A stretch of DNA of 64,000 nucleotides from an uncultured Methanomicrobiaceae archaeon (GCA_963826525.1 CAWGXH010000004.1:1280001-1344000); one strand, 5' to 3'; positions 3,971 to 61,937 are shown, counted from the first letter of the stretch. Translations and numbers: made by a program. Notes: generated by a model from the letters alone, not told the origin.

Positions 3971-5116
3971 CTATGCTCTTCGCCGCTGCCCGTCCATACA
4001 GGCGTTCAGTACCTCGTCGAGGAACTCGAGCGTTCCCTCGACACCGGCGAGCGCCCGGGCGCGAAGGTGCACCCGCCCCCGCACCGGCGGTGTCAGGGGG
4101 ACGAAGGGAGTCTTCGGGATGACGCTCTGTTCGTAGGACGAACCGATGACGAGATCGGGCTCGCATGCCCTGAGCAGATCCGCTATCCGGGTGAAGTCGA
4201 CCGTCTCCTCGACCCGGAAGCGGGAGGGGGGGGCGTGGTTTCGGGAGCAGATGCAGGCTATCTCGGCGTCGAGATGCTGCTCGAGCGTCTCCGCGACGAA
4301 GACTGCATATGCCCCTCCTCCGAAGACTGCCGCCCGGGGAGGCTCGAAACGGCGCAGGTACTTGTCGCATGCCTTCGCGATCCGCGCCTCGGCGGAGGCG
4401 ATCTCCCGGTAGACCGGTGCGGGGTCGATAGTGTCACGGGTGTTCGCGAGTCTCTCGAATGTCTCCGCCACTGCATCGAGGCCGAGGAGGGAGCCGCACC
4501 ACTCTCCGACGCCGCTCGCGAGGTCGGGATTCGTGCCGACCGTGAACGGAGCCGCCCTATACGCCGCATCGAACCGGTCGCAAGCGAAGGTCGTGCCGAT
4601 GCCCGCGCCTGCCGCCGTGAGCAGGCGCCGGGCTTCCAGCATGTTCCCCCGGTGCAACGGATCGATAAGGCTGATCCCGTCGATGTTGATGCCCGGCATC
4701 TCGTCGTCGACCGCCGGCTGTATCCGTTCCAGCGCCGCGTGGTACCCGGCCTCGAGCGTGCCGAGGAATCCCGGACTGTCGACGAGGAGCAGGTCGTGAT
4801 CGTCGACCACACCGGCGAGGTCCTCCCCCATAATCGCGGGCACGCAGGTGGTGACAACGGCGATATGATCGTACCGTCCGGCAACCTCGCCGATCACCTC
4901 GCCGAGCCGCTCTTCCGTCCCGAAGATGATCTCGTTCTCGACGAGAAACGTCCCGTGGATGGGGGCGGCGACGAGGGAGGCCGGGTAGAAGTAGCAGCCG
5001 CTCGAACCGTGGACGATGACGGCGAGATCTTCGAACCCGGCGAGACACGCGACCGCTCCGGTCATGGCGCAAGGCCAGAGCGGGTTTGAGCAGTCCTGCT
5101 GTGCGGGTGGGTGCAT
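3971..5116 (-). CDS. Nitrogenase component-1-like oxidoreductase subunit (NifD/K fold, short form)
   Basis: NPLWPCAMTGA, HGSSGC, ENEIIFG, TTCVPAIMGEDL, DSPGFLG and DLVIGSSYE. Confidence 0.88.
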   Translation of the reverse strand: MHPPAQQDCSNPLWPCAMTGAVACLAGFEDLAVIVHGSSGCYFYPASLVAAPIHGTFLVENEIIFGTEERLGEVIGEVAGRYDHIAVVTTCVPAIMGEDLAGVVDDHDLLLVDSPGFLGTLEAGYHAALERIQPAVDDEMPGINIDGISLIDPLHRGNMLEARRLLTAAGAGIGTTFACDRFDAAYRAAPFTVGTNPDLASGVGEWCGSLLGLDAVAETFERLANTRDTIDPAPVYREIASAEARIAKACDKYLRRFEPPRAAVFGGGAYAVFVAETLEQHLDAEIACICSRNHAPPSRFRVEETVDFTRIADLLRACEPDLVIGSSYEQSVIPKTPFVPLTPPVRGRVHLRARALAGVEGTLEFLDEVLNACMDGQRRRA

Positions 5117-5215: not shown

Positions 5216-6503
5216 GTGAATATATGCTGTATTAAGGCTCAGAATTGTACTCTGCTCCTAGTCGCGCTCCTGCTTCTCGCGGGAGGGTTCGTCTCTTCCG
5301 CGTCTGCTGCCGGGACCGCCGACGTGACGATCGTCTCCTCTCCCGGTGGTGCCTCCGTCACGGTAGACGGCTCCTATGTCGGCATGACCTCGCGGGGTCG
5401 ACCCTTCCATTCTCCGTCACCGTGAACGCAGGAGCCCATACTGTGGCCGTAGCACTCACCGGGTACCAGCCCTCGGTTACCACCATCCAGGCGAAGCCGG
5501 GCGAGCTGCGGACGCTCTCGATGATCCTCGCCTCCTCCCCGGCGTCGGGTGCGGCATACGTCGCCTCGACGCCCGGGAGCGCGATGGCGTCGCTTGACGG
5601 CGGCGAGACACGGGCGACTCCCGCGAACTTCACCGTCGTGGCGCCCGGAACGCACTCGGTGAAGATCACGAAACCGGGTTTCGTTCCCTGGTCGAAGACG
5701 GTGACCGCCAATGCAATCCTGAACCCGGCGCCGGATACGGGAACGCTCTCGGTCATGTCAAACCCGTCCGGTGCCGATATCTATCTTGACGGGACGTACC
5801 TGGTTTATTCCCCGATCACCCTCGGGAACGTCGTCCAGGGCGGACACGAGCTCCGCCTGCAGCTCGCCGGGTACCAGACCTGGACGGGGACGGCATCGGT
5901 TGGAGGCGGGAAGACCGCTGCGGTGAGCGCAGTCCTCATCCCGACACCTGCCGGGACGTAGGTGACATCGCCGTGACGTCCACGCCCGCGGGAGCGGCGA
6001 TATATCTCGACAACACCTACCGGGGCACGACTGCCGCCGGGAACCCGATTGATATCACCGGGGTCTCTCCCGGTACGCACGCTGTCACGCTGACGCGTGC
6101 CCGGTATGCCGATTACGTCACCGGCGTTTCCGTCGCCCCGGGACAGACGGTGCGCATAGCCGCGGTGATGATGCCCGGTGCAGGCCCGGGTGAGAAAGGC
6201 TTGGTCGCGGTCTCTTCAAAACCCTCCAGTGCAGACATCTATCTCGACAACCAGTATCTCGGGATCACGCCGCTTACGCAGGCCGGCGTCGCGCCGGGTC
6301 AGCATGCGCTGCTTATGAAGGTGAACGGCTATACGGACTGGTCGGGAGATGTCCAGGTGGCGGCAGGGAAGACCACTGAGGTCACGGCAGGCATGATGGC
6401 GAAGCAGAGCGCGCCGGAGGCAGGGAGTGCTCCTGTCCTGCTGCCGGGTGCGCTCATGCTTGCCGCGGTGCTGTACCTCGCGTGCAGGATGAAACGAGAA
6501 TAA
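5216..6503 (+). CDS. Multi-PEGA-domain surface protein with signal peptide and C-terminal membrane anchor; frameshifts near 5390 and 5960; start approximate
   Basis: About five S(S/T/N/K)PxGA-IYLDG-G-TP repeats across ORFs 5111, 5245 and 5973; C-terminus PVLLPGALMLAAVLYLACRMKRE. Confidence 0.8.
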
Positions 6504-7069: not shown

Positions 7070-8143
7070 TTATCGGTGGCCGCCTGAACGGATTGCCCGT
7101 TGCCAGCGGTGCAGCATCCGGTGGATGCCTGCGGTTCCGACAGGAGCCGGGTAGGGGGCAGGGAGCGGTATCCCATCCTGCGTGAGGCGGAGATCGAGCG
7201 TTTCTACTAGTTCTGCGACGATCCCGCGCCCTTCCCCATCCTCTTCGAGCATTGGGGAGAACCGGTCGAACCTGATACGGGTTCCGGCGAGATCGGCGAA
7301 CTCTGCCAGAATCTCCTTCTGGTATGCAGCCTCCTCATGCACCGGATCACGGGAGTCCTGTCCGGTAAGTCTGCCCACCTCTTCGAGGAACCGGCGGGTT
7401 CCGGCGAGACCCGCCGGAAACGATTCGACGAAGGGTGTTCCGTGTCGGTGCATAAGTTCCTCCCCGACCGGCCGGAGAGCCGGTTCGCGGAGGATGTTGA
7501 GCGATCCCGCACCAAGCCGGGCGACATCGCGCGTAGCGATATCCCGGACGAACCGGAGGTTCACCGGAAGGTCGAAGTATGCAAGCAGACGCACCATCTC
7601 GGCGTAGTTTTCGTCGACATCCGATTCGAGGTTCTTTTCCCCGATGAGCGTCACCCCGGCGTCCTGTTGTGAGCAGGGTCCGGCAAGAGTCGCGGCGGCG
7701 AGCAGTGCATTCGAAACCCCCGTCTGGAAGATGCCGCCGAGGAATCCGGCCGTCCGGATGGGAACGACCGGCAGATCCCACTCGCGCGTGCAGACGCCGT
7801 AGACGTCGTCGCCGATGGTATCGACGATACAGGTGGAGAGGACGAAGAGCGACGCCGGGGATGGCAGAACCTCGTGAGCACGGCCGATGCACCGTTCAAG
7901 CGCATCTTCACCGCCGAAGATGATCTCGTTCTCGGAAAGCCCGGTCGAGAGGAGACGTGGGACGGCAACCGTATCGTTTCCGAGCAGCGTTGCATGGAGG
8001 AGGGAAAAATTGTGGTGGGTGCATCCGGCAGGGCCGTGGATGATGCAGACCGCGTCGCGTATCTCTGTCACCACGGCGAGAGCGCCGGTCAGGGTGCATC
8101 CCTCAAACCTGGACACATTCGAGGGCAAAGGCTTCGAGTTCAT
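7070..8143 (-). CDS. Nitrogenase component-1-like oxidoreductase subunit (NifD/E fold, short form)
   Basis: [41 protein letters not shown] and TAGFLGG; likely start MNSKP overlaps the end of the NifH-like gene. Confidence 0.88.
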
Positions 8144-8921
8144 CCATGTCGAAGGGAGTCGGAATGCTCGTCTGGGTGTTCTTGTAGATATCGTCGGCCA
8201 GCTGCCGGTAGACCTCTGCCTGGCCGGAATCCGGAGCATACTCGATGACCGTCTGCCTGTTCAGCTCGGCGAGCTGGACGATGCGGTCGCGCGGTATATA
8301 CGCTATCAGGGATGAGTTGATACGCCGGGCGAACTCCTCCACGAGGTCACGTTCCCCTTCGATGTTCTTCGCGTTGCAGATGACGCCGCCGAGCCTGCAG
8401 CCGTTTCTGACCCTCTTCGAGAGGCGGGCGATCGCTTTTGCGATGTTGTTTGCAGCGTAGATCGACATCAGCTCGCCGGAGGTGACGAGGTATACCTCCT
8501 CGGCGTAATTCTCCCGCATCGGCATGGCGAAACCGCCGCAGACGACGTCGCCGAGGACGTCATAGACGATCACGTCGCCGTTAAGAGCGCCGAGCCGTTC
8601 CAGAAGCTGGAAGGTTGCGATGATTCCACGTCCGGCACACCCGATCCCCGGTTCCGGACCCCCTGCCTCCACGCAGCGCACACCCGAGAAACCGGGATGG
8701 ACGACGTCGTCCACGGTGAGGTTTGCATCTCCCCGCTCACGGATAAGGTCGAGCACGGTCGGGATCCAGGTCCCGTGCATCAGCATCCTGGTGCTGTCGT
8801 GCTTCGGATCACAGCCGATCTGCAGGATCTCAAGGCCGCTTCTTGCCAGTGCTGCCGAAAGGTTAGCCGACGTCGTGGATTTGCCGATTCCACCTTTCCC
8901 GTAGAGGGCGATCTGTTTCAT
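8103..8921 (-). CDS. Nitrogenase iron-protein-like reductase (NifH/CfbC family, group IV-like)
   Basis: [35 protein letters not shown] and [12 protein letters not shown] with both [4Fe-4S] Cys. Confidence 0.93.
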
Positions 8922-9179
8922 CCTAGAACCTACCTTACGTTAGGCACGCTGTCCTCAAATAATTAATCTGGATTTTCGTAAAGACAAGTGGATGTGCGGG
9001 ACACCGGGTATACGGCATCTCCCGCCTTCCATTCCCCGGCGGGTGCCTATCAGGCGCCGCATGCTCGATCTCCGGGCGGTGCGGTTCCCGGCGGCTACCC
9101 GGGAACGGCGGGTCGGAGACGTTAGCCCGAGACCATCTCGCGCTTCTGCCGGTGCCGCGGAGCCGGCCGTCAAAACACA

Positions 9180-9320
9180 TCTTCTCAAATAAATAGTTTT
9201 GTCCTTTCTTAAATCCGGTCAGATGAACTCTTTTAGAGGATATGTCACGATGAGGATTCAGTTTAATATTCTGAGTCTTATAAATTGTTATTTATTATCC
9301 AGAAGGTATATAATTGGCGA
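9180..9320. promoter_or_regulatory. AT-rich divergent promoter region with TATA-like boxes
   Basis: Strongly AT-rich stretch (ttataaatt, tttattat, tataat) between the divergent NifH-like gene and the 9359 gene. Confidence 0.5.
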
Positions 9321-9358
9321 GTTGAAAACCTACGTACACCACAGGGGAGCTGACGTAT

Positions 9359-9988: not shown

Positions 9989-10579
9989 TCCGGCTTTTCT
10001 CACGTTTTTTTTTAGGCTCATTTCAGGGCGCTTCCCTTTCAGTCTTTTCGATCCGGACTCTTCAAACCCGCAGGGAAATCGATTTACGTACGATGATATG
10101 ATCCTGCGTTCCGGCGCAATGAACGCCGGGATGAACTGATGGGCTTCAACCCTGCATGGCGAGCGTTTTTCCGGCCGGAGCCGGTGATCAATGCCTCACC
10201 GGGTTCGTTTCGCGTCTCGATGCAGATTTCCGCTGGTAGGTCTACTGCGCTCCGGTGAGATGTGCGTGACTGTCCCCTGTTCCGGGAAGAATATTCGGCT
10301 TCATGATACGTGACGGCACGGGTGCTGGATTTTTCCATACGCTGATTTTTTCCAGCGCGATTGAGATATATGCTCGACCGTTCAAGGTTTCTCAAGGGCC
10401 TGATTGCCATGCGAGAGTTTGTGGTACTTCGGATGTGCGATTAATTCAGGGAAAAGCGAGTGCTGTTCATCCCACCCTGATAAGCCGGATGAGCATACTA
10501 TAGCTCGAAGGCAGATGTGTTTGCATTCTTCAACTTAAGAGTCTGCTCGTTTTTGCCTTCGGTTTGAAGGTGATTACCA

Positions 10580-13500
10580 ATGAGCACGAAACGTATAGAG
10601 AGAGTCATTCCTCTTCTCATGGCGGTGCTGATGATAACCACGGCGTTCATCCCCGCGGTGAGCGCTATGGCACCGCAGGCAACTGCATCGAGTATGGATG
10701 CCGGGGGGATACTCGGTGCCTGACATAACCCCTTCTGCCGCAGAGATGTCCGGAGCGGCATCCGGGACGGTATCGAACGGTCAAAGCGTTGCAAAAAATA
10801 AGAAGAACCAGTCGTCGTGGTCGGCAGAGAACTGGGCACAACCCATGTCTGGGACGAACGCCACCGGCTATGCCCCTTCGGGGATTGAGTCTGCCGCAGA
10901 ACCGGGTATAGATTCTCTAGGCGGCAGGAGTTGAACGCGTGGTCACCGGTTCCGGCAAGACCAAGATCAAGGTTCACGATCCGGAGACCAGAACCATCGG
11001 GATTCAGGACGAGAGCAGGTCTGGCGGCAACGGCGGCGACGATGAACTCGAGATCAGGCTGCTGAACGCCACCCCTGACCTCGGCACCTTCACGGAGATA
11101 TTCGAGGTAACCGCACACCGCATGATCGCACTCGACGAATCGGAAGACTTCCTGGCCACGAGAGCGCTCCATAACGGGAACGAGAACGTCACACGGGCTA
11201 CCAGTGGTTCGTCTGAGAGAACAGATCGCATACCGTCGAGATTCACATCATCGAATAACGAAATGTTACCCTGCGGCATACCGCTCTCCTGAGAATGAAC
11301 CCGAGGACGTCGATCCTGACGACACCTTCGGAGATATTACCCTCGCAGAGCGGCGACTCACAAGGCAAAGCCGGGCTGAAAGTACCTATGAAGAGATCTT
11401 AATGAAGGATAAAACTCTTGAGAGCGGTGTTCACGAGGAGATCGTCCCCGAGAGCGCTCCCCACCAGAACAGCACCCCGGAAAACAGCACTTCTGAGAAC
11501 GTTCCCATCGAAGACGTCATCCCTGACATCGATATCTCCGGAAACACCACTCCTGATGAGACAACTTCCAAAACCGTCACAATCAGAGAGCCCTATATCG
11601 CCGGCACCGAGACCAGGGAGGAATCCTGGCCGGAGTGGGTGGCGTTCGACCCGGCAGGGCGGACGGCTCAATGTCGGTGAGACCTATCAGTTCAAGGTAA
11701 TCTACAAAGAATACGCCGAGATAGGACAGTTCGATATCAAGACGGCGCCGGTCATCGAGGCGTCGCATGCCCGGAGATGACCTGGTGGACTACCGCCTGG
11801 GCATACTGGGTGCCGATCACGATCATCAGCCCGCCCTCAATCGATGGCTACTCGCACTGTGAGAACGTCTCATTCCGCGACGGGATGCAGAGCGACTTCG
11901 ATGACGTCCGGTTCGCAACCGACGACGGCACCGTCCTCGACTACTGGAAAGAGTCCTATACGGCATCCGGTTCGGCGGCCATCTGGGTCGGCCTTCCCGC
12001 CGGTACGACCTCGATCTGGATGTACTACGGGAACGCGAGCTGCCACCGATATCGGCGACATGAACAGTGTCTTCACCCTCTACGATGGCTTCGACGGGCC
12101 GTCTCTCGACACCACTCTGTGGCATGAATCGCCTTATCCTGGGGTGAATTACTTCTCCAAAGGCTGGATATACAATGCCCAGTCTCATAATGCACTACGA
12201 ACTAGAATACTCGGAATAGTGTGATTCACGAGCGGCGAACCGCTGATCGTGGCGATGCACATCCATGTCGATAGTCTGCCTCGGTCTCCCACCATCAGCT
12301 GTGGGTGTTTCCCCTATTCCTTGGCGGCATTTACAACGGCATGTCTTGGTGCTGGGAGGGGCCGTACAGACCGGCGTGTCCGCGTGAATGGTGTGTCATC
12401 ATGGCGACCGGGAACATCAGCGTGGTCTCGAGGTTGGGGGTGACTACTACAGCACTTGGATCATCACTCCCTCCACTCAAACTCACACTGTCAGCGGAAG
12501 CGCCACATACACCGATGTTTTCGCTGGCACTACCGGGATATCAAACCATCAAATGTTCCTCCTAGGCGGTGACAACTACATTCCCGGTCGAGTAATACGG
12601 ATGGACTGGGTCAGGGTCCGGAAATACGTCGAGACCGAACCGGTGTTCACGTATGGAACACCGCAGGAATCACCCGTCGTGACGACGATCTCTGTCACTC
12701 CGTCGGATGTGGATCTAGCGGTGGGCGAGACCTGTCAGTTCACTGCTACTGCTTATGACGATGCTGGTAACGTGGTGGACATCACCTTCACCTGGGAGAG
12801 CAGCAACGAGACGGTCGGCACCGTGACCGAAGACGGTGTCTTTTCAGCAAATTACGACGGGACAACCGAAATATCTGCATCTGCAGGTTCGATAACCGTA
12901 ACCGCGCAGGTGACCGTCATCCCTGTCAGTGACGTACGGATCGGCATGGAACTGCTCTGCCGACGGCTGGTATCAGGCTGGTCGTCTACCGCATCGTGGA
13001 CATGCCCTAACGGCGCCTGCGCCGAATATGGCCCCGTCATGGTCGACGGTCACGGAGAACACGGTGCGGACGTCCATCTCTCGGCGGGTGCGGTGATAGC
13101 AAGTGTCGAGCACAACTTTACTGATCCCTCCGGTGTCGGGTGGGACGGCTTGGCGCTCGTCGCGCGCGTGGGGGGAAGCAGCGTCCCCTCCGGGCGGTGG
13201 ATGACCATCGAGGTGAACGGCGAGCTTGTTTACTCGGAGTCCGGTTTCTCCAGCCTCCGATCCTGACAATGCGATCCCCAGGATGTTCCAGGCCGACTTC
13301 CCGCAATCCGACACCGTGCGGATAAGATATCTCCCATGGGCAGAACCCGATGTGGAGCACTCACGTCCCGATGGACTACTATTCGCTCGAATTGCATCCG
13401 TCTACTCCCCCCATCGCCATCACCTCTCCGCGTGACGATACGGTGCCGTCCGGCGAGAACGTCACCGTGGCCGGGAACGTCTCCGATACGAGCATTACCA

Positions 13501-16500
13501 ACCTCACGCTCACTCACAACGGCGTGAATTCGACCCTCACGGTGCAGAACGGGATACTTTTCGGCCAAGGTGACCCTTGCGGATGCGAATACGATCACGG
13601 TCAGCGGCACCGACTCGTGGGGCAACCCGATCTCGAAGACGCTCCTGCTGGACGGCGATATGCTGCCAGCCGACTTCGAAGAGTCGATCGGGTTCGATCC
13701 GCTCGACGCTGATTCCGACTGGACCCAGTGGTATGGAAACCAGGCAGACAACGGGATCATCGACGGTTACGAGCACTCCTTCAACGGGCTGCCGGTCTTT
13801 GTGAAGTACCGGATCGGCGCCGATCCGTTCGCGTTTGATAGTGACGGCGATTGGCTCCTCGACGACTTCGAGCTGATGCACCTCGCCCTCACCACCAGTG
13901 TCTGCTCGTCTGATTCCGATGGCAACGGTATACTGGATAGGGACGAGGACCCGGATGATGATGGTCTTTCGAATTATGAGGAACAGACCTACGGGACCGA
14001 ACCGCTGATGGCCGATACCGACGACGACGCTCTTCCCGACCGGGAGGAGATCTCGCTGGGAACCGATCCCTGCAACGCAGATACCGACGGCGACGGCATT
14101 CTCGACGGCTATGAGGTGACACTCGGAACCGGCCTTCTGAACAACGATACGGCCGTCCTCGGCACACTAGACGGTGAGGAGGATTACTGGAGCACCGGGC
14201 ATTATATCAACGAAACGCTGAACCTGACGGTCCACGGCCGGGGCTACGCGATCGCCAACGCCAGTGTTCCCAGGTTAACTTCACCAATCTTATGCGAGAG
14301 GATGTCCTCGTCAGCAAGGTCTACGATATCGGGTTCGGCGATGGTATCGACCACGGAACGGTAACGATCAAGTATAACAGCACGTTCGTTGAAGATAACG
14401 AAACCCTGTCGGTATACCGGTTCGACGAAGATTTCGGGACGTTTTTGCCGATCAATTCGACGGTCGACGAAACACAGGGGGTCGTGACCTGCGCCGTGAC
14501 CAACTCCTCGATGTACGCCGTGCTGGATTCGGTGAAGTGGGACTCCCTTTTCGTCAACTGGCCGGGCATGTCGTCCAGTGAGGTGTCGGCACTAGGTGAG
14601 GGATGGCAGGCTGTTGCAAACGGAGATTTCTCGGAGGGGCAGACCGGTTGGGTGCCGTCCGGTCAGTATTTCTACAATCAAGCGAACTATGGAATGATAG
14701 TTGAGCCCTATTATCACTCGGGGTACGAACCTTCTCCGCCATCTTTGAGAATTTCGATCTGGAATAAAAGGCCTGAGGATTTTACAGAATGCATAGTAAT
14801 GCACCCCAATGTTGATCTGACAGATGTCGATTCCCTTACATTCAGACTACAGGTGCATTGAAAGCCATCAGAGTGGGGGCATCGCCTCGTCCGGGTTACG
14901 ATACTGGATCGATGGGGTATCCACTGCGGGATCGCCGAGTTTCAGGGATGACGGTAGTGGCCTGGTCTGGGTGGATAAGGAATGGCAGACGGCAACTATC
15001 GATGTGAGTGACGTCAAGGGTGTAAGATCTCTATATTTCAAAGTCTCGATGAACAGGGACATGGGAATAATCGAGTATAACGAAGCAGACCTGACATATC
15101 TCATTGACGATGTTACTGCCTGGTCGAAGACGGAGCCACACAGCCCGATACCGCCATCGTGCGGCTCCATGTCGAAGATATCGCAGTCGCATGCAGGCGT
15201 GCCCAACGCAAAAATCACCCTTTCCGATAGTGGGAAATATGTGTATACCGATGCATACGGAAATGCCTATGATTTTCTCTTTAAAGGCCCTTTAGTGACT
15301 CTATCTCCTACCGTATCGAAGCGGAAGGCTACAACAATCATGACGGATACATACGAATCGATCCCGATGATTTCGGCACAAACCGTACCGATAAAGCAGT
15401 CATCAACGATGGTCTCACGGGTTCGATCGAGGTAACCTACACTCAATCGCAGGTATTCATCTACGTTGACGATATGTACTATCAGGGCCACTGGAAACAC
15501 TGCTTATATTTTCGATCTCTGTGCAGAACCAGGATACAAATTCGCATATCGTTAGATTTGAAAAGGTGAGTTGGAGTCCCCAAAAACAGATGTTTGGTAC
15601 CTGCCGGTGGTCAGCCGCACGTTTCCTTTAACCTGATGGATGCAACGGGGGCAATCGAGGTCACCTCCACGCCGCCGGGTGCCGCCGTGTACCTCGATCA
15701 GGTGTATAGAAACACCACGTCAGAGGGTTCCGGACTCCTCACGATATCGAATGTCAACTCCGGCCAGCACCGGATCGACGTTCAAAAGGACGGCTATGCT
15801 CCGTTCTGGACGACGGTAACGGTGGCCGATGGTCAGACTGCTCAGGTGGAGGCGGACCTCGACAACACGACGAAGAGGAGGACGGCATACTGGATTACTA
15901 CGAGAGGAACGGGTTCGTCGACGGCTTCGGCAATCGGCACGTAACCAATCCCGACTCGGTCGACACCGACGGCGACGGGCTCTCGGACGGATACGAGGTG
16001 ACGGAACTCGTCCATCTGGGTGGGAATCTCTTCTTCTTCAAGTCCAGGAGCGACCTGACGAAAGTAGACAGCGATGACGATGGGATTAATGATCCCGACG
16101 AGCCCGAGTTCTTGACGCAGCCGATGAGACGCGATACCGATTCGGATAGGATCCTCGATAGGTGCGAGCTCCTGCTCGGGACCGATCCGATCAACCGTGA
16201 CACGGACTATGACGGGAATGATGACTATCTCGAGTTACAGTTTGACTATCCCTACGGTCCGCTGGTTCATGCCGACAGGAGTTACATTGAAAACGCCATT
16301 GCTCTTGCCGACGGTTTTGCCTCCGGCGAGAGGGGCGCAGACCGTTGCGACAACCTGTACGACCTTGCCGGGTGGATGTTAAGTGGTGTTGTCCTTGCAG
16401 GAGATATCCGTGATATAGGCGGGTCGATAGTGCGCGGCGACGGGATGGGAACGCTGGCGAATGCCTTTGCTCAGATCCCGGCAATAGGAGATGCTGAAAG

Positions 16501-17345
16501 GGCGGTTATATAAGGAGCCAAATATTTGAAACGATCACGAGAAGAATCGAGGTAGCGCAACGTTTGTTCCGAGGTATATCGCCTCGTCCATCGATTCGGT
16601 TAAGAAGATCATCGGTTAATACGTCATCGACGGGTTGAGGGCAAAAGGGTTTAAGGATGATGCAAGCGTACGCTTACTAAACAGGGGATCAAATCTAAAT
16701 TGCTCGACGAAGCGCTGGACAATGCCGTCGTCAACGGCCAGAGCATCTACGTGCGGTACCCGGGTCTCAAGAATTTCTTTAGCGATAAGAATGACCCTGG
16801 AGGGCTCTGGTCTTCAAGGAACAGGGGACGTTCAACACACTGAATATCGTTCGCGCCGGAAACTGGACAGTCGGTCCTTCGGTATACGAACAATCTCCAG
16901 GGAGCCTATTCCGAGTTCTGCGCGAAAGGCTGGACATCGGCGGCGATGCGGGTACGCGACCTGAGCGACATCAACACGGGCGGCGTCGACTACGCCGCGC
17001 TGGTGGATGGCGGAAACACCCTGAAGATCGTGGAGGTCAAAGCTCGGCAGAGACTGGAGCGAGCGGATCTTAGGAATTACATAAAATTCGATCGAACAGT
17101 ACAATCCCGAGTCTTTCAACGTGGACTACGTGATTCTGAGCCTCGGAGAGGACTTCTTCAAGGAGCAGTCGACCGTCAGCAAGGAATTCGTGCTGTATAT
17201 CAACAGCCCCGAGAGCACGGCGATCAGGAGTCACCTGAACTTTGATCCCGACCTGTGTTTATGGTATGAATTTACAGGTAAGGACGGTACAAAACATTCG
17301 GGAACCGTAAAAATTACGGTGACGGCGGTGAAAAAACAGGTGAAG
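10580..17345 (+). CDS. Giant secreted multidomain protein, candidate polymorphic toxin (about 2200 aa if repaired; many frameshifts)
   Basis: RBS gaaggtga + ATG 10580; signal MSTKRIERVIPLLMAVLMITTAFIPAVSA; DUF2341-like DFDDVRF...LDYW...WMYYGN (11780-12130); Big_2 Ig (12670-12930); DxDxDG Ca repeats (13650-14190, 15860-16230); PEGA (15640-15860); pre-toxin-TG-like (16360-16500); GVD...IVEVK nuclease (16870-17340). Confidence 0.72.
13650..14190 (+). repeat. Asp-rich Dx[D/N]xDG calcium-binding repeats (TSP3-like), first block
   Basis: DSDGDWLLD, DSDGNGILD, DPDDDGLSN, DTDDDALPD, DTDGDGILDG with GTDP spacers. Confidence 0.8.
15860..16230 (+). repeat. Asp-rich DxDxDG calcium-binding repeats, second block
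   Basis: DTDGDGLSDGYE, DSDDDGIND, DTDSDRILD and DTDYDGNDD across shifted frames. Confidence 0.75.
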
Positions 17346-17348
17346 AGC

Positions 17349-18539
17349 ATGGCGGGTAATGCATTTCAAAAGTATTTATTTGAGGAGCGGGAACGATGCG
17401 AGTCGCTCCTGAAGGGATTGGGAGCGGTACGATAGGTTGCCGGAAAAACTCGACTCAGAGCCGATCATATGCTATGAGAAACTCGGATCCATCTATCTGT
17501 ATTCCGGAGAGACCGACCTTGCCGGAAGGATGTTCTCCAACCTCTCCCTTTTCGGCACGGCCATCAGAAAATCCCGGTTCGACATCAAAGGGTTCAAAGA
17601 AGAAGATAAAGCCAAACCGGATCTTCTCGTGATGATAGCAAAGGGAGATATAGAGAATGCGATTTATCTCCTTCTTGCAGGGAAGAACCCGGATCAGGTT
17701 CATCGACTCGTTACGTGGGCGGCGGAGAACACCGATCTTCCACCCGACTACGTCAGGGGGCGACTGGGGGTTCAGGACTATAGCGAAGTCGCCGTCGGGT
17801 ACCTCTGGCACGGCTACGCCCTGATCTGCCTCGGGCGGTACGGGGAGGCGCTTCCGCTGCTCACGGGAGGTGACCCCGCTCTTCGTCCAGGAGCGGAAGA
17901 GCGGCGTCGAGGTCTGGCAGAAGGTCGAGTATGCCCTCCCGAAGGCGCTCGTACCCCTCTGCGAGTTCGAGCTCGATCCCACCGCCGACCGCCTGAAAGC
18001 GGCGCAGGAGGGGATCGAGACCTACCTCAAAAGCCTGAAGATGTACCGCGATCGTCTCAGCGGCCTCCTCTACTATTTCCACCTCAAGAAGCAGTTCGCC
18101 GACGTCTACGAAGCCGATCCGGCATCGTTCGTCCCACCATCCGCAAACGGTAGCGGAAAAGCCGGCTATGGCCTCGCAACCGGTCACCGGCCGGGAGAAG
18201 GACCCCGAAGGTATGATCGTCATGGGACTGACCCAGTTGGATCCGCCGAAGGTCTGGACGCTGGGATCGTTTGGGTGCTACGCGGATTTCGAGGCGTTCA
18301 CTGCGTACGTCCGCTCTCTCGGCGGGTATCCTGCGCTCGCGGCACTGATGGACACCTATACCCTCGAAGAGCAGCAGGAGGCCGCGCCGTTTATCGAGGA
18401 GTGCGAACGGCTTCTCCAGCTCCGGGATCTCGATCCGAGGGTTCGTGCCGTTGCGGAGGAGATCCTTTCGGCTCTGCAGACCGCGGTGCAGGAAGGTGCA
18501 ATACCGGACGATCTGGTGGTGGAGATCTACCAGGGGTAA
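17349..18539 (+). CDS. Candidate immunity protein (alpha-helical, TPR-like); frameshifts near 17430, 17866 and 18165
   Basis: RBS aggtga + ATG 17349 directly after the nuclease tip; WHGYALICLGRYGEALPLL TPR-like helix; no signal peptide. Confidence 0.55.
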
Positions 18540-18687
18540 GGGCTGCTGTGAGGGATCGGTTCCAATCCCTTCAGGGCACGGTGCTATCCTGAATTACCTA
18601 TCGGCCGGATGCACCCACTTTTTCTGAGAGACGCCGACGGCAATCCCGATAGCAAAAAGCGGTGCGCCCCGGCTGGCCCCGCCCCCC

Positions 18688-20146
18688 TCAGTCGAACCGC
18701 TTGAATATCCCGAGGAAGAGCATGATCACCGGGATGATCTCAAGACGCCCGATCCACATGATCATGATGAAGAGCACCTTTGCCGAGGCGGACATATCGG
18801 GGGAGACGAACCCGGTGCTGATCCCGTTGTTGCACATCGCCGACACGACCTCGAAGATGACATTGCTCGACTCGAACCCGGTCGGCTGCAGGTGCATCGC
18901 GAGGACGGTGGCGATGAAGATGATCAGGAAATAGAGCATGATCACCAGCATGTTCCGGGAGACCTCGAGGTCGGCGATATTCTTCGGGATGACCTTCCCC
19001 TCGTACTTGAACGGAACGAGCACCTTCCCCGAGACGAGCATCCTCCGGAACCACCACAAAAGACTCTGTGTACCGAGGACGACGCGGGAGAGCTTGATAC
19101 CTCCGGCAGTGCTCCCGGACGCTCCACCGATCACCATCAGCATCGAGAGGAAGAGCACCGTGACGCTCGCCCATTCGTTCGGCGAGCTCGATCTGAAAGC
19201 CGGTGCTGGTGGCGGCCGCGATCGACATGAAGAGCGCCTGCCGGATCGCCGTCGGCGTATCGGCGAAGGAGAGGGTGACGAGGTCCCAGGCGATGACCAC
19301 GATACCGACCGCGATGAGGATGAAGAGCAGCCGTGCCTGTGAATCGCCGAAGAACTTCACTCCTTTCTTGTTGTACATGTAGTAGTACAGTTTGAACGGC
19401 AGGGCGCCGGCGATCATGACGGGTATGATGAGGATCTCAAGAAGCGGGTTGTCGTAGTAGGGAATTCCTGCCGCATGGACGGAGAACCCGCCGGTGGAGA
19501 TCCCGACGAGTGCGATATTGATTGCGTCCCAGACCGGTATCCCGGAGAGGAGGATCATCCCGACCGAGGCGGCCGTCAGGACGAGATAGATCTTCCACAT
19601 CTCAAGCCCTGTTGCCACCACGCTCGGCATCAGCGCCTCGCTCCGCCCCTCCGACCGGTAGAGCCGGAACTGCGTCAGGCCCGTCCTGCTCGCCATGGCG
19701 ATGGTGAATGCGACGATCCCGATACCGCCGAGCCACTGCATGAGCGACCGCCAGAAGAGCAGCGTCTTTGGTAGTGTGTCGATATCGGGGGCAAGCGTCA
19801 GGCCGGTATCCGTCCACCCCGACATCGCTTCAAAGACGCTGTCGAGGTAGGGCATCCCTATCCCGAGCGTGAACGGGAGCGCCCCCACGATAGCACAGAT
19901 CAGCCAGATGATGGCGACCGCCATGAGGGCTGCGGAGAGAGGCGGTTCCCGCTCCCGGTGCGGAACCCGCGTGAGCAGCGTGCCGAGGAGAAAGAGGGTG
20001 ATCGGAACCGATGCCATCGGGAGCAGCATATTCCACTCCTGGTAGATCAGCGTGATAAGGAGCGGCACCGCTGTACCGATGCTGATAAATCTGAAGATAT
20101 TGCCGATATCGGGTGCGATGATGGAGAACTGCTCGACCCTGTCCAT
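18688..20146 (-). CDS. trkH: TrkH-family potassium uptake protein, frameshift near 19190
   Basis: FEAMSGWTDTG, WRSLMQWLGGIG, ISTGGF, GGASGSTAGGIK and MWIGRLEI. Confidence 0.92.
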
Positions 20147-59316: not shown

Positions 59317-61769
59317 TCACCCTCCGCGTGACAAGACTCCCTTCTTCGCCGGGGGTATATATGCTTTGAGCAGCAGCGAGAGCGAGACCACGGTGACGGA
59401 GCTCAGGGCCATCGCAAGCGCCGCGAGCTCCGGCCGGAAGGTGATCCCGAAGAACGGGTAGAGAACACCTGCGGCGACCGGGATTAAGAGGGCGTTGTAG
59501 GCGAACGCCCAGAAGATATTCTGCTTGATCCGGCCCATCACCTTCCGTGAGAGCTGGACTGCGGCCACGGCGTCCGTAAGGTCGTCCTTGATCAGCACGA
59601 TATCGCCGCTCTCGATCGCAACGTCCGTGCCGCTCCCGATGGCGATCCCGACATCCGCCCGGGCGAGCGCGGGCGCATCGTTGATCCCGTCCCCGACGAA
59701 CGCCACGCTCTCTCCCTGCTCCTGGAGCCTCTTCACCTCACGTGCCTTCTCCTCCGGCAGCACGTCGGCGAGCACCGTGTCGATGCCGATCTGCCGGGCG
59801 ATGGCGTCTGCCGTTCGGGCATTGTCGCCGGTTATCATCATCACGGAGAGCCCCATCCGTTTGAGAGCCGCGACGGCAGGCCCGGTCGTCGGCTTGAGGG
59901 TATCGGCGATCCCGATGATGCCCGCAAACTTCCCGTCCCCGGCGACGAGGACGGCCGTCTTCCCCTCGTCCTGCAGGCGGCCGATCGCCTCGGTGCTCGA
60001 CGGTGCGAGGGAGACGCCCCGCTCTTCCAGAAATGCGGGATTCCCGATGAGCACCTCCGTCCCGTCCACGGTGGCACTGACGCCCCGCCCGCCGAAGGTG
60101 GTAAATCCCATCGTTTCACGGAGGGGGGTTCCGGCCGCCTCGGCCCTTCTGACGATAGCTTCGGCGAGGGGATGCTGCGAGTTCCTCTCGACGCTCGCGG
60201 CAAGGGCGATGAGCCTCTCTTCATCCATACCGACCGCGATAACGTCGGTGACATCGGGTTTTCCCCGGGTGAGCGTTCCGGTCTTGTCAAAGACGATCGT
60301 CGTTAAGTGTTCGGAGACCTCGAGCGCCTCGCCGTTTCGGATCAGCACGCCGAGCTCCGCCCCCCTGCCGATCCCGACGGTGACGGCCGTTGGGGTTGCA
60401 AGGCCGAGAGCACAGGGGCAGGCGACGACGAGGATGGAGATGAGCACGGTGAGGGAGAAGAGGAGCGTGGCGCCGAGGGCAATGTACCAGACGACGAACG
60501 CGGCGATCGCGATCGAGAGCACGACCGGGATGAAGTAGCTCACCGCTGTATCGGCAATACGCTGAACCGGCGGCTTTGATCCCTGAGCATCCTTCACCAG
60601 CCTGATGATCTGTGAGAGCGCCGTATCACGGCCGATCCGTGTCGCCCGGATCCGGAGCATCCCGTTCGTGTTCAGCGTTCCGCCGACCGCTTCGTCGCCG
60701 GGCTGCTTGTAGACGGGGATTGACTCGCCTGTGATCATCGACTCGTCCACCGCGCTCTCGCCGCCCACGACCTGCCCGTCGACCGGCACCTTCTCGCCGG
60801 GTCTGACCATGAGGACGTCGCCGACCTGCACATCGTCTATCGCCACTTCCTCCTCCTTGCCGTCCCTGATCACCGTGGCGGTCTTTGGTTGCAGGCCGAC
60901 CAGTTTTTTGATAGCCTCCGACGTCCTCCCTTTCGCCCGCGCTTCCAGGTAGCGGCCGAGGGTGAGGAACGAGGCGAGCATCACCGCGGTAGCGTAGAAG
61001 TTGAACGCCGGCGTCAGGACGAGGCCGAACGTGCCGAGGATGCTCGCGCCGTACGCGACACCGATACCCATCGAGTACATCACATCCATATTCAGCGTCC
61101 GGTGCCGCAGCGCCCCGAGTGCGGCGTGGAAGATCGGGTAACTGACGTAGACGAAGACCGGGGCGGTGATGACGAGCATGATGAGGTTGATCGAGACCGG
61201 GAGCTCGACGAGCGCCGGAAGCCCGAGGAGCATCACGAAGAAGAGGGGTATGCTCACGGCAAACCCGACGGAGAACCGGAGTAGTTTGTCGCGGAGATCC
61301 TTATCCCGTGCACGCTCCTCTTCGTCTTCGGCGACCTCTCCCTCGACGCCGAGGTACTGGTACCCGCGTCCTCGATGGCCGCTTTCATATCGGCGACGGA
61401 GACGGTGGCCGGGGTATAGGTGACGTGCGCGTTCTCCGTCGCGAGGTTCACCCGGACATCGAGGACGCCGTCGAGGTCGCGCAGGGCGGCTTCGATCACC
61501 TGGACGCAACTCGCACAGACCATGCCGCCAATCTTCAGCGTTATCCTGCTCGTAACGACCCCGTATCCGGCTTCATCCACCGTGCGTTCGAGCTCGGCGA
61601 GGTTCGTCTTTTCCGGGTCGTACTCGACGGTTGCGGTCTCCTCTGCAAAGTTCACCCGGGCATCGTAGACATCATCGCGATCCTTGAGCGCTTTTTCGAC
61701 GTTGAGAGCGCAGGATGCGCAGTGCATTCCGGATATCTTGAGATCCGCTCGTTTCCGCTCCTCCGGCAT
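59317..61769 (-). CDS. copA: Cu(I)-translocating P1B-type ATPase, frameshift near 61363
   Basis: Two HMA domains (GMHCASC, GMVCASC), TGES, CPC, DKTGT, HP, GDGIND, and YN...MALSS Cu+ signature. Confidence 0.95.
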
Positions 61770-61937
61770 ATGTACATCTCCTTGTCCCCCGTTCTCATAT
61801 AGGTGCATCCCTCATGCCGCCGCTGCGCGATCTGCCGCGGCATCCTCTTTTCTGTGGAAATACCATTCCGTTATTTTTATAGAAAAGATTATTATATTGT
61901 TCGTCCGCTAGGGGGGACCGTTGCGGAGGCGATACCG

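Follow-up and report, generated by a model that had tools for sequence, protein, structure and literature searches.

WapA of Bacillus subtilis is a Sec-exported, surface-associated protein in which a long RHS stalk ends in a variable nuclease tip, and its gene is adjacent to that of the immunity protein WapI. Contact-dependent toxin systems have reportedly been predicted in many archaea as well, Methanomicrobia included, in work by Makarova et al. from 2019. Here we analysed a 64,000-nucleotide (nt) stretch of one strand from an uncultured Methanomicrobiaceae archaeon (GCA_963826525.1 CAWGXH010000004.1:1280001-1344000), hereafter called the window, in which positions 10580 to 18539 hold a long, broken gene (the toxin gene in what follows) and a smaller gene directly after it. 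Judging from its sequence, this locus very likely encodes a polymorphic toxin together with its immunity protein, in an archaeon of the class Methanomicrobia whose mcrA gene is found on the same contig. Passages of a survey by Zhang, de Souza, Anantharaman, Iyer and Aravind (2012; PMC3482391) describe polymorphic toxins as rare in archaea and mention RHS-stalked toxins in Methanosarcina acetivorans. Conflict systems between archaea are mostly predictions; according to a later paper (2021; PMC8416519), archaeal polymorphic toxins were then without experimental characterisation. Among the papers searched, none joined ‘polymorphic toxin’ and Methanoculleus.

The locus shares with the systems treated in those passages of PMC3482391 an N-terminal trafficking signal, a repeat stalk, a pre-toxin segment and a tip that is replaced by recombination, together with an immunity gene directly downstream and, in its relatives, orphan cassettes and SUKH immunity proteins. 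On the comparative features that define polymorphic toxin systems in that part of the survey, the locus is one of them. Its stalk is unlike that of the archaeal examples given there, since it consists of TSP3, PEGA and Ig-like units and not of RHS repeats. The CdiA-CT/CdiI systems offer a second parallel, with a conserved pre-toxin boundary, swappable tips and cognate immunity genes; some CdiA-CT tips are restriction-endonuclease-fold DNases, and one member of the family found here (P0107) bears the EC869 domain (PF21111). The window differs from these systems in having no CdiB, TPS or FHA part and in a tip unrelated to the EC869-like domain. With WapA the locus has in common predicted Sec export without a dedicated secretion machine, a repeat stalk, a variable tip and a neighbouring immunity gene; in contrast, the stalk of WapA is of the RHS type and its anchor that of a bacterial wall, and the target envelope and the entry route differ. 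An earlier note on this DNA had seen no Rhs, CDI or T7SS machinery in the window, and this held when domain families were examined: none of the Rhs, CDI, T6SS or T7SS families was found among the 93 other open reading frames (ORFs) of the window, the neighbours being housekeeping genes, and the toxin gene itself contained no TPS/FHA repeats, CdiB or RHS repeats.

The same note had read the locus as a Sec-exported multidomain carrier with a swappable tip and an adjacent cognate immunity gene, and had proposed to compare scaffold and tip across relatives; the comparison agreed with this reading. The N-terminal 2.7 kilobases (kb) of the toxin gene matched only the toxin of one relative (G024), with up to 69% identity, and the middle of the gene matched G024 and a second relative (G228) alike. 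The tip (16540-17336) and the downstream gene matched only the corresponding pair of G228, and the gene downstream of the G024 toxin gave no match. The scaffold of the toxin gene matches one relative, and its tip and downstream gene match another, which shows, at the level of these alignments, that the tip of ∼270 amino acids (aa) has been exchanged between lineages together with the gene after it. Across 301 genomes sampled from the class, the whole tip was present only in the window's own genome (G000) and in G228, in the latter as the end of an intact 1646-aa protein; 13 other genomes of this set matched the tip profile in its pre-toxin and linker part only. A 44-residue remnant that matches the last part of the tip profile only was seen in a 52-aa open frame at G079:C52:12161-12292. 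A scan of one genome per species gave five tip loci, G228 among them, and the other four came from Methanoregula, Methanosarcina sp., Methanosarcinales and a short contig binned with a Desulfobacterales metagenome-assembled genome (MAG). The scaffolds that bear the tip differ from one another (VWA+TSP3, PEGA+TSP3 and LamG+TSP3).

Diversity behind the pre-toxin domain was examined in 128 proteins or ORFs with a complete C-end after this domain. Removal of 14 tails shorter than 120 aa and of 12 duplicates left 102 distinct tails, which were clustered on their last 120 aa, whole-tail clustering having chained them via a semi-conserved linker. The tails fell into 12 clusters (sizes 53, 12, 10, 8, 5, 4, 3, 3, 1, 1, 1 and 1), the largest of which is a loose superfamily; the uniform C-terminus that the earlier note had named as evidence against its proposal was thus not what lies behind this one domain. 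Known toxin domains occur behind it in P0090 (Colicin-DNase, 65.9 bits, and WHH, 46.6 bits) and in P0107 (CDI_toxin_EC869_like, 35.7 bits with a cut-off of 27), and a Pfam scan recognised no toxin domain in the window's own tip. Orphan cassettes were found in the relatives G024, G052, G124, G191, G161, G276, L073 and L075, and SUKH/SMI1_KNR4 genes follow such cassettes in G024 and at a second locus of G000. Two of these cassettes, at L075:6053-7430 (Methanosarcina) and L073:834-2369 (Methanoregula), adjoin the tip/immunity pair itself; in each, the pre-toxin motif leads into a tip of another kind, with a small gene downstream. The second locus of the window's own genome (G000:C3 ∼362900-366400; L020:7945-11375) is a fragmented polymorphic-toxin gene that shares the pre-toxin domain but not the tip, and after it come SUKH/SMI1_KNR4 genes of 349 and 128 aa.

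The gene downstream of the tip travels with it. All five tip loci found outside the window carry a homologue of the downstream gene, 36-43% identical to that of a genome of the same genus (G001), so that tip and downstream gene occur together in six of six loci when the window is included, these loci being related lineages and not independent trials. The homologue starts 3-13 nt past the toxin stop in the four loci with ORFs listed and directly after the stop in G228. Among the 301 genomes of the class, a homologue was present only in G000, G001 and G228. The downstream gene of the window tiles the intact 394-aa protein of G001 (L023:1518-2699) in four pieces, with 71-83% identity per piece. 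In G001, which is 99% complete, the alignment with the window breaks off at 10442 and resumes at 17329, and the toxin gene is missing; the intact 394-aa gene of this genome shows 90% DNA identity to 17329-18539 and is preceded by the last few codons of the toxin. Retention of the downstream gene without the toxin is the behaviour expected of an immunity gene, and the adjacent immunity gene of the earlier proposal is, in this comparative sense, supported. Another genome, G002, contains neither gene. At the place of the toxin gene, G001 has a 224-aa DUF4013 membrane-protein gene (L023:789-1460). No Pfam match to SUKH/SMI1_KNR4 was obtained for the window pieces, the G001 and G228 proteins or the four other downstream homologues. 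Sub-threshold hints of TPR were seen in three downstream homologues and were weaker in the window fragment (E 0.14-0.31).

Carrier and tip are joined by the pre-toxin domain, whose core is the Gly-rich segment at 16364-16495. In an alignment of 17 sequences (A1), the pattern GD[IV]RD ... GD ... P..GD includes five invariant residues, namely G, D, R, D and D. The A1 profile was found in 31 of the 301 genomes and in 8 of 42 genera, the positive genomes being distributed by family as 15/46, 5/155, 0/44, 0/11, 7/11 and 3/33; often the domain occurs in a long (full-length) gene and then in 2-4 short tandem copies. In a collection of 5.8 billion proteins, with 8000 candidates scored, 99 A1 proteins were obtained at E ≤ 0.001. 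The sources named include Methanoculleus, Methanofollis, Methanosarcina, Methanolobus and Ca. Methanoperedens, plus one actinobacterium, and the proteins are annotated only as hypothetical, PEGA-domain or VWA-domain proteins.

One part of the earlier proposal was not supported, namely that 16360-16500 is a PT-TG-type segment. The Pfam model of PT-TG (PF14449, cut-off 23.5 bits) matched neither the window pieces nor the scanned homologues, even at E up to 10; it gave no match when all six frames of G000 were scanned at E up to 1, and it is carried by none of the 99 database homologues of the domain. In 401 genomes of the phylum it never exceeded its cut-off, and the 10 best sub-threshold matches were all on unrelated proteins. 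The yokI gene of B. subtilis phage SPBc2, checked as a possible PT-TG example, showed only LXG and Tox-SHH. By every hidden Markov model (HMM) test run, the pre-toxin segment is a conserved domain of its own and not PT-TG. It resembles PT-TG in lying at the same place, between carrier and tip, and its GD[IV]RD recalls, as a resemblance only, the 15-residue loop to whose Gly, Asp and Arg the best-conserved residues of PT-TG are assigned in a portion of the Pandoomain preprint (10.1101/2025.10.01.679605). The two differ in that the PF14449 model never matched here and that the survey, as described in that portion of the preprint (10.1101/2025.10.01.679605), covered bacteria only.

These observations suggest how the module might work. 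The toxin would leave the cell by way of Sec and either stay on the surface or be released from it, and its stalk would contact neighbouring cells. The pre-toxin domain, which appears to consist of two short hydrophobic stretches of small residues around a charged GDIRD loop, may mark the point at which the tip is released or is helped across the target membrane. The tip, as a PD-(D/E)xK-type nuclease, would then degrade nucleic acid in cells without the cognate protein, and the cytoplasmic, probably all-helical 394-aa downstream protein would bind and block the tip in the producer and its kin. By analogy with Sec-dependent bacterial toxins such as WapA, no dedicated secretion machine would be needed.

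A number of points weigh against this picture. Activity, export, binding and killing are predictions for every member of the family, and the function of the pre-toxin domain is putative. None of nine tip proteins had a Pfam match at E up to 10, and no match to the tip was found in PDB sequences or in PHROGs; an hhalign comparison of the tip with YraN of Escherichia coli lined up four residues with a probability of 4% and an E of 0.011. The downstream protein falls in no known immunity family. At the window locus itself there are no orphan cassettes, the next gene being TrkH on the opposite strand. The toxin gene contains ∼36 frameshift events and four in-frame stops in 6.75 kb and, as assembled, no stop separates its end from the downstream ATG: the homologue P0068 ends ...AVNK, and the window continues in the frame of the downstream start as ...AVKK CAG GTG AAG AGC ATG. 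The same codons precede the ATG in G001, and one base more or less in the run of six A at 17331-17336 would bring a stop into frame.

The broken state of the toxin gene required separate attention. The longest + strand ORF between 10580 and 18539 encodes 292 aa and the coding sense hops among the three frames; in an alignment-free count, at least 22 frame switches were required from 10580 to 17340, and at least 2 for 17349-18536, to avoid stops. When the translation of 15710-16510 was compared with 41 related genomes, matches occurred in 8, that of the window included, and several lay inside intact ORFs of 1,324-1,975 aa. A 1974-aa ORF (L011:5202-11126) is collinear with the window from 10580 to ∼16543. 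Frameshift-aware alignments of the window were run against P0025 (residues 1-1010 supplied) and against P0068. Residues 3-1010 of P0025 spanned window positions 10586-13773 with 666 of 1000 aligned residues identical, at the cost of 17 frameshift events, 2 in-frame stops, 6 missing residues and 55 extra codons. Residues 1-1177 of P0068 spanned 13801-17336 with 938 of 1160 identical, and here 19 frameshift events, 2 in-frame TAA, 10 missing residues and 10 extra codons were counted. This collinearity shows that 10580-17336 corresponds to one gene, as the earlier note had proposed when it stitched the ORF fragments into a gene of ∼6.8 kb. The source of P0068 is a 3,680-base short-read contig from the sole public run with related sequence, on which the frame is open over 1177 codons.

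The breaks in the toxin gene amount to ∼5 per kb, compared with roughly 0.4-0.7 isolated frame-breaking indels per kb in the flanking genes (gap lists against G001), and three +1 insertions fall within the 1.19 kb of the downstream gene. Examples in the flanks are a PEGA protein (5245-6503), whose frame breaks at 5392 and 5961 and whose split is confirmed by Pfam, and a 262-aa gene near 9100-9353. The assembly is error-prone throughout, with the island 5-10 times worse. We lean towards reading the breaks as errors of the consensus, in an island that varies between strains and may have been low in coverage or mixed in strains, within an error-prone long-read assembly, rather than as real decay. 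Housekeeping genes in the window are split too (TrkH, the PEGA protein and probably the P-type ATPase), the indels resemble in kind and small size those in the rest of the assembly, and they seem far too frequent relative to stop-creating substitutions for natural decay. The short-read contig of the relative, moreover, encodes an unbroken 1177-aa protein over the same stretch. That sole run, which contains 8% of the words, carries a relative ∼88-90% identical and not the source strain, and no RNA dataset with the window sequence was listed. The strain-variable island, which in this assembly has several times more frame breaks than its surroundings, will be missed by gene callers.

The alternative that survives best, and that keeps a substantial share of probability without being preferred, is that the module is of the same kind and dead: the toxin gene, and perhaps the immunity gene, would be a decaying pseudogene on its way to the state of G001. 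It would account for the ∼36 frameshift events, for four in-frame stops that each lie one base from the homologue's codon and for a break density 5-10 times that of the flanking genes. Two of the stops sit exactly between the pre-toxin domain (carrier) and the tip, and loss of the toxin with retention of the downstream gene has occurred in the sister species G001. However, the downstream gene, intact in G001 and so presumably selected, has three frameshifts here, and the splitting of nearby housekeeping genes and the prevalence of 1-2-base indels, as elsewhere in the assembly, also argue against decay. So do the completeness of G000, only 87.6% despite 16 contigs (sister genomes of like size are 98-99% complete), and a residue conservation with the homologues that stays at 67-81% in all pieces.

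As to what the tip does, the evidence tilts modestly towards a PD-(D/E)xK-type nuclease. Window pieces from 16620-17345 tile the intact tip homologues P0001-P0016 in order, and P0068 likewise; 11 tip homologues at E ≤ 0.001 were found by an exhaustive search of 1.84 billion representatives, and 8 by a word-based search. The family pattern is AY.E, GG.D and IVE.KA, with ∼13 residues between D and ExK. E42, D70, E83 and K85 (P0005 numbering) are invariant in alignment A6 and nearly so in alignment A3; in the window the codons of E, D and ExK lie at 16913-16915, 16988-16990 and 17033-17041. The tips are only 33-71% identical to one another, yet these four residues are invariant or nearly so. NCBIfam models of YraN (UPF0102), which is PD-(D/E)xK endonuclease-like, matched the core in four of the five short tip proteins, with E of 0.003-0.013. 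E, D and ExK align with those of YraN, whereas the scores are far under the cut-offs and the tip is longer at its C-terminus and begins with an additional helical part. PF02021 (YraN) was not found in the 121 genomes of the phylum searched, which limited the comparison to the E. coli protein. An hhalign comparison with P0107 matched only the pre-toxin and linker part and not the EC869-like tip.

The possibility that the tip is a toxin but not a nuclease, being another enzyme or a membrane-active domain in which E..D..ExK is coincidental, is a real one, if the less probable. It fits the absence of any significant match to a nuclease family, the YraN matches of 15.5-17.6 bits against cut-offs of 81-109 with the 4% hhalign probability, and the lack of relation to the EC869-like tip of P0107. 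It fits less well with the invariance or near-invariance of four residues in such divergent tips, with a D-ExK spacing of ∼13 residues, and with independent weak matches that all fall on the same core and on a family of the PD-(D/E)xK fold. Of the nuclease-like tip of the earlier note, the conserved E..D..ExK motif was thus recovered, and assignment to a family went no further than sub-threshold YraN matches.

We regard it as improbable that the locus is no toxin at all but a variable surface adhesin or a self/non-self recognition protein, with the downstream gene as its chaperone or partner, as proposed for VARTIG of the Thermococcales. The scaffold is indeed made of adhesin-type domains, neither the window tip nor the downstream protein matches a toxin or immunity family, and VARTIG is presented, in a part of PMC8416519, as an archaeal hypervariable surface module that is not necessarily a toxin. 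Members of the family nevertheless bear Colicin-DNase/WHH and EC869-like nuclease tips on the pre-toxin domain, and SUKH immunity genes stand after sister cassettes. Export is predicted for the tip, whereas the downstream protein lacks a signal peptide, and an intact downstream gene in a species without the toxin fits protection and not a chaperone. Finally, the notion that the fragments are independent small genes and the long gene illusory, for which the lack of any single ORF above 292 aa could be cited, is refuted by the tiling of L011:5202-11126, P0025 and P0068 by the window pieces, in order and with no rearrangement over intact homologues of 1,177-1,974 aa, and by single Pfam domains that straddle adjacent frames.

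A polymorphic toxin with its immunity gene being the preferred reading, we put forward, as a tentative extension, that the pre-toxin domain, with its hydrophobic stretch, GD[IV]RD loop, GD and P..GD.K, may define a separate delivery module shared by methanogens and methane-oxidising archaea (Methanomicrobiales, Methanosarcinales and Methanoperedens), in which a Sec-exported protein would release its tip across the S-layer and membrane of a neighbour with no injection machine; the tip and the 394-aa protein would then be a new nuclease/inhibitor pair. If true, this would be a contact-dependent killing route specific to archaeal envelopes, and strain-level killing among methanogens would bear on the structure of methanogenic communities. 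The pre-toxin domain finds such toxins across methanogens, which makes them a defined and testable family. Intact orthologues exist, including one (L075) from a Methanosarcina genome whose record carries no MAG label, and G001 provides a natural toxin-less, immunity-only relative. The pre-toxin domain, the tip and the immunity protein correspond to no Pfam or NCBIfam model, tip and immunity protein having also been scanned against PHROGs; they may be among the families that Makarova et al. are said to have predicted in 2019.

The architecture of the carrier is given in the table. The order drawn up in the earlier note (signal peptide, acidic region, DUF2341, Big_2, further beta domains, calcium repeats, PEGA and a second calcium block) was recovered, with Pfam for the domains, its DxDxDG repeats proving to be TSP3 (TSP3_bac, over the cut-off in block 1 and under it in block 2). 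Intact homologues keep the same N-terminus. A frameshift near 12038 splits DUF2341, and in an intact homologue Glucodextran_B reaches 31.9 bits (cut-off 27). In 14250-15560 no Pfam family exceeded its cut-off, with one sub-threshold match to Tail_spike_N (19.8 bits against 25); stretches resembling this region were seen by eye in P0008, P0035, P0039 and P0090. The lower GC content noted before for a variable region was found again, with 0.474 at 15000-15499, and 0.492 at 17000-17499, in surroundings of ∼0.55-0.62. The PEGA-repeat protein encoded at 5245-6503 (+), in two ORFs here and in a single 437-aa gene in G001, has repeats that also match the PEGA region of the toxin.

Table. Positions in the window of the toxin gene, its domains, motifs and in-frame stops, and of the downstream gene
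Feature	Positions	Strand	Description	Evidence
Toxin gene	10580..17336	+	∼6.75 kb, spread over three frames	Collinearity with P0025, P0068 and L011:5202-11126
Sec-type signal peptide	10580..10666	+	Basic start, ∼19-residue hydrophobic core, AVSA before the cut	Read from translation
In-frame TGA	11214..11216	+	W in P0025	
In-frame TAA	11256..11258	+	Y in P0025	
Acidic low-complexity region	11280..11600	+	Longer than in P0025; holds most of the 55 extra codons	
DUF2341	11894..12128	+	In two frames	Pfam 40.8 bits (profile 1-55) and 18.3 bits (51-83); cut-off 23.4
Big_2 Ig-like domain	12679..12918	+		Pfam 39.3 bits (cut-off 22.8)
Ig-like domain, Big_7 / Glucodextran_B type	13407..13532	+		Below cut-off: 23.3 and 18.4 bits
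TSP3 calcium-binding repeats, block 1	13830..14135	+		TSP3_bac 30.3 bits (cut-off 25)
Conserved region of lower GC content	14250..15560	+	Without Pfam family	Conserved in P0068
PEGA domain	15648..15869	+		Pfam 50.1 bits (cut-off 20.8)
TSP3 calcium-binding repeats, block 2	15880..16240	+		TSP3_bac 21.4 bits, below cut-off 25; homologues pass
Conserved pre-toxin domain	16244..16510	+	∼100 aa	A1 profile, E 4.7e-28
Pre-toxin landmarks	16364-16399; 16400-16414; 16433-16444; 16475-16495	+	Hydrophobic stretch; GDIRD; RGDG; IPAIGDA	
In-frame TAA	16511..16513	+	K in P0068; just past the pre-toxin domain	
Variable C-terminal tip	16514..17336	+	∼270 aa: linker, helical part, PD-(D/E)xK-like core	
In-frame TAA	16617..16619	+	D in P0068; in the linker	
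Tip core motifs	16904-16915; 16979-16993; 17027-17044	+	E in AYSE; D in GGVDY; ExK in IVEVKA	
Downstream gene, predicted cognate immunity	17349..18539	+	∼394 aa, no signal peptide; +1 frameshifts at 17427, 17867 and 18148	

Elsewhere in the window, the TrkH cation transporter gene (18691-20146, -) has one base more than G001 at 19189, and its two ORFs cover positions 20-332 and 345-491 of the Pfam profile. At 59320-61808 (-), an ORF with an HMA domain (61257-61808) runs into the start of the ORF for an E1-E2 P-type ATPase (59320-61509); a single copper-ATPase gene has probably been broken in two here by a frameshift. At 3974-5116, 7073-8239 and 8106-8921 (-) lies a group of neighbouring genes that is conserved in G001 and G002, two of them of the nitrogenase-component-1 type and one of the NifH family. 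At 18539-18678, 138 window bases are replaced in the relative of run X1 by 1,330 other letters, and G002 has ∼1,330 extra bases at the same place, which marks a second variable spot right after the island.

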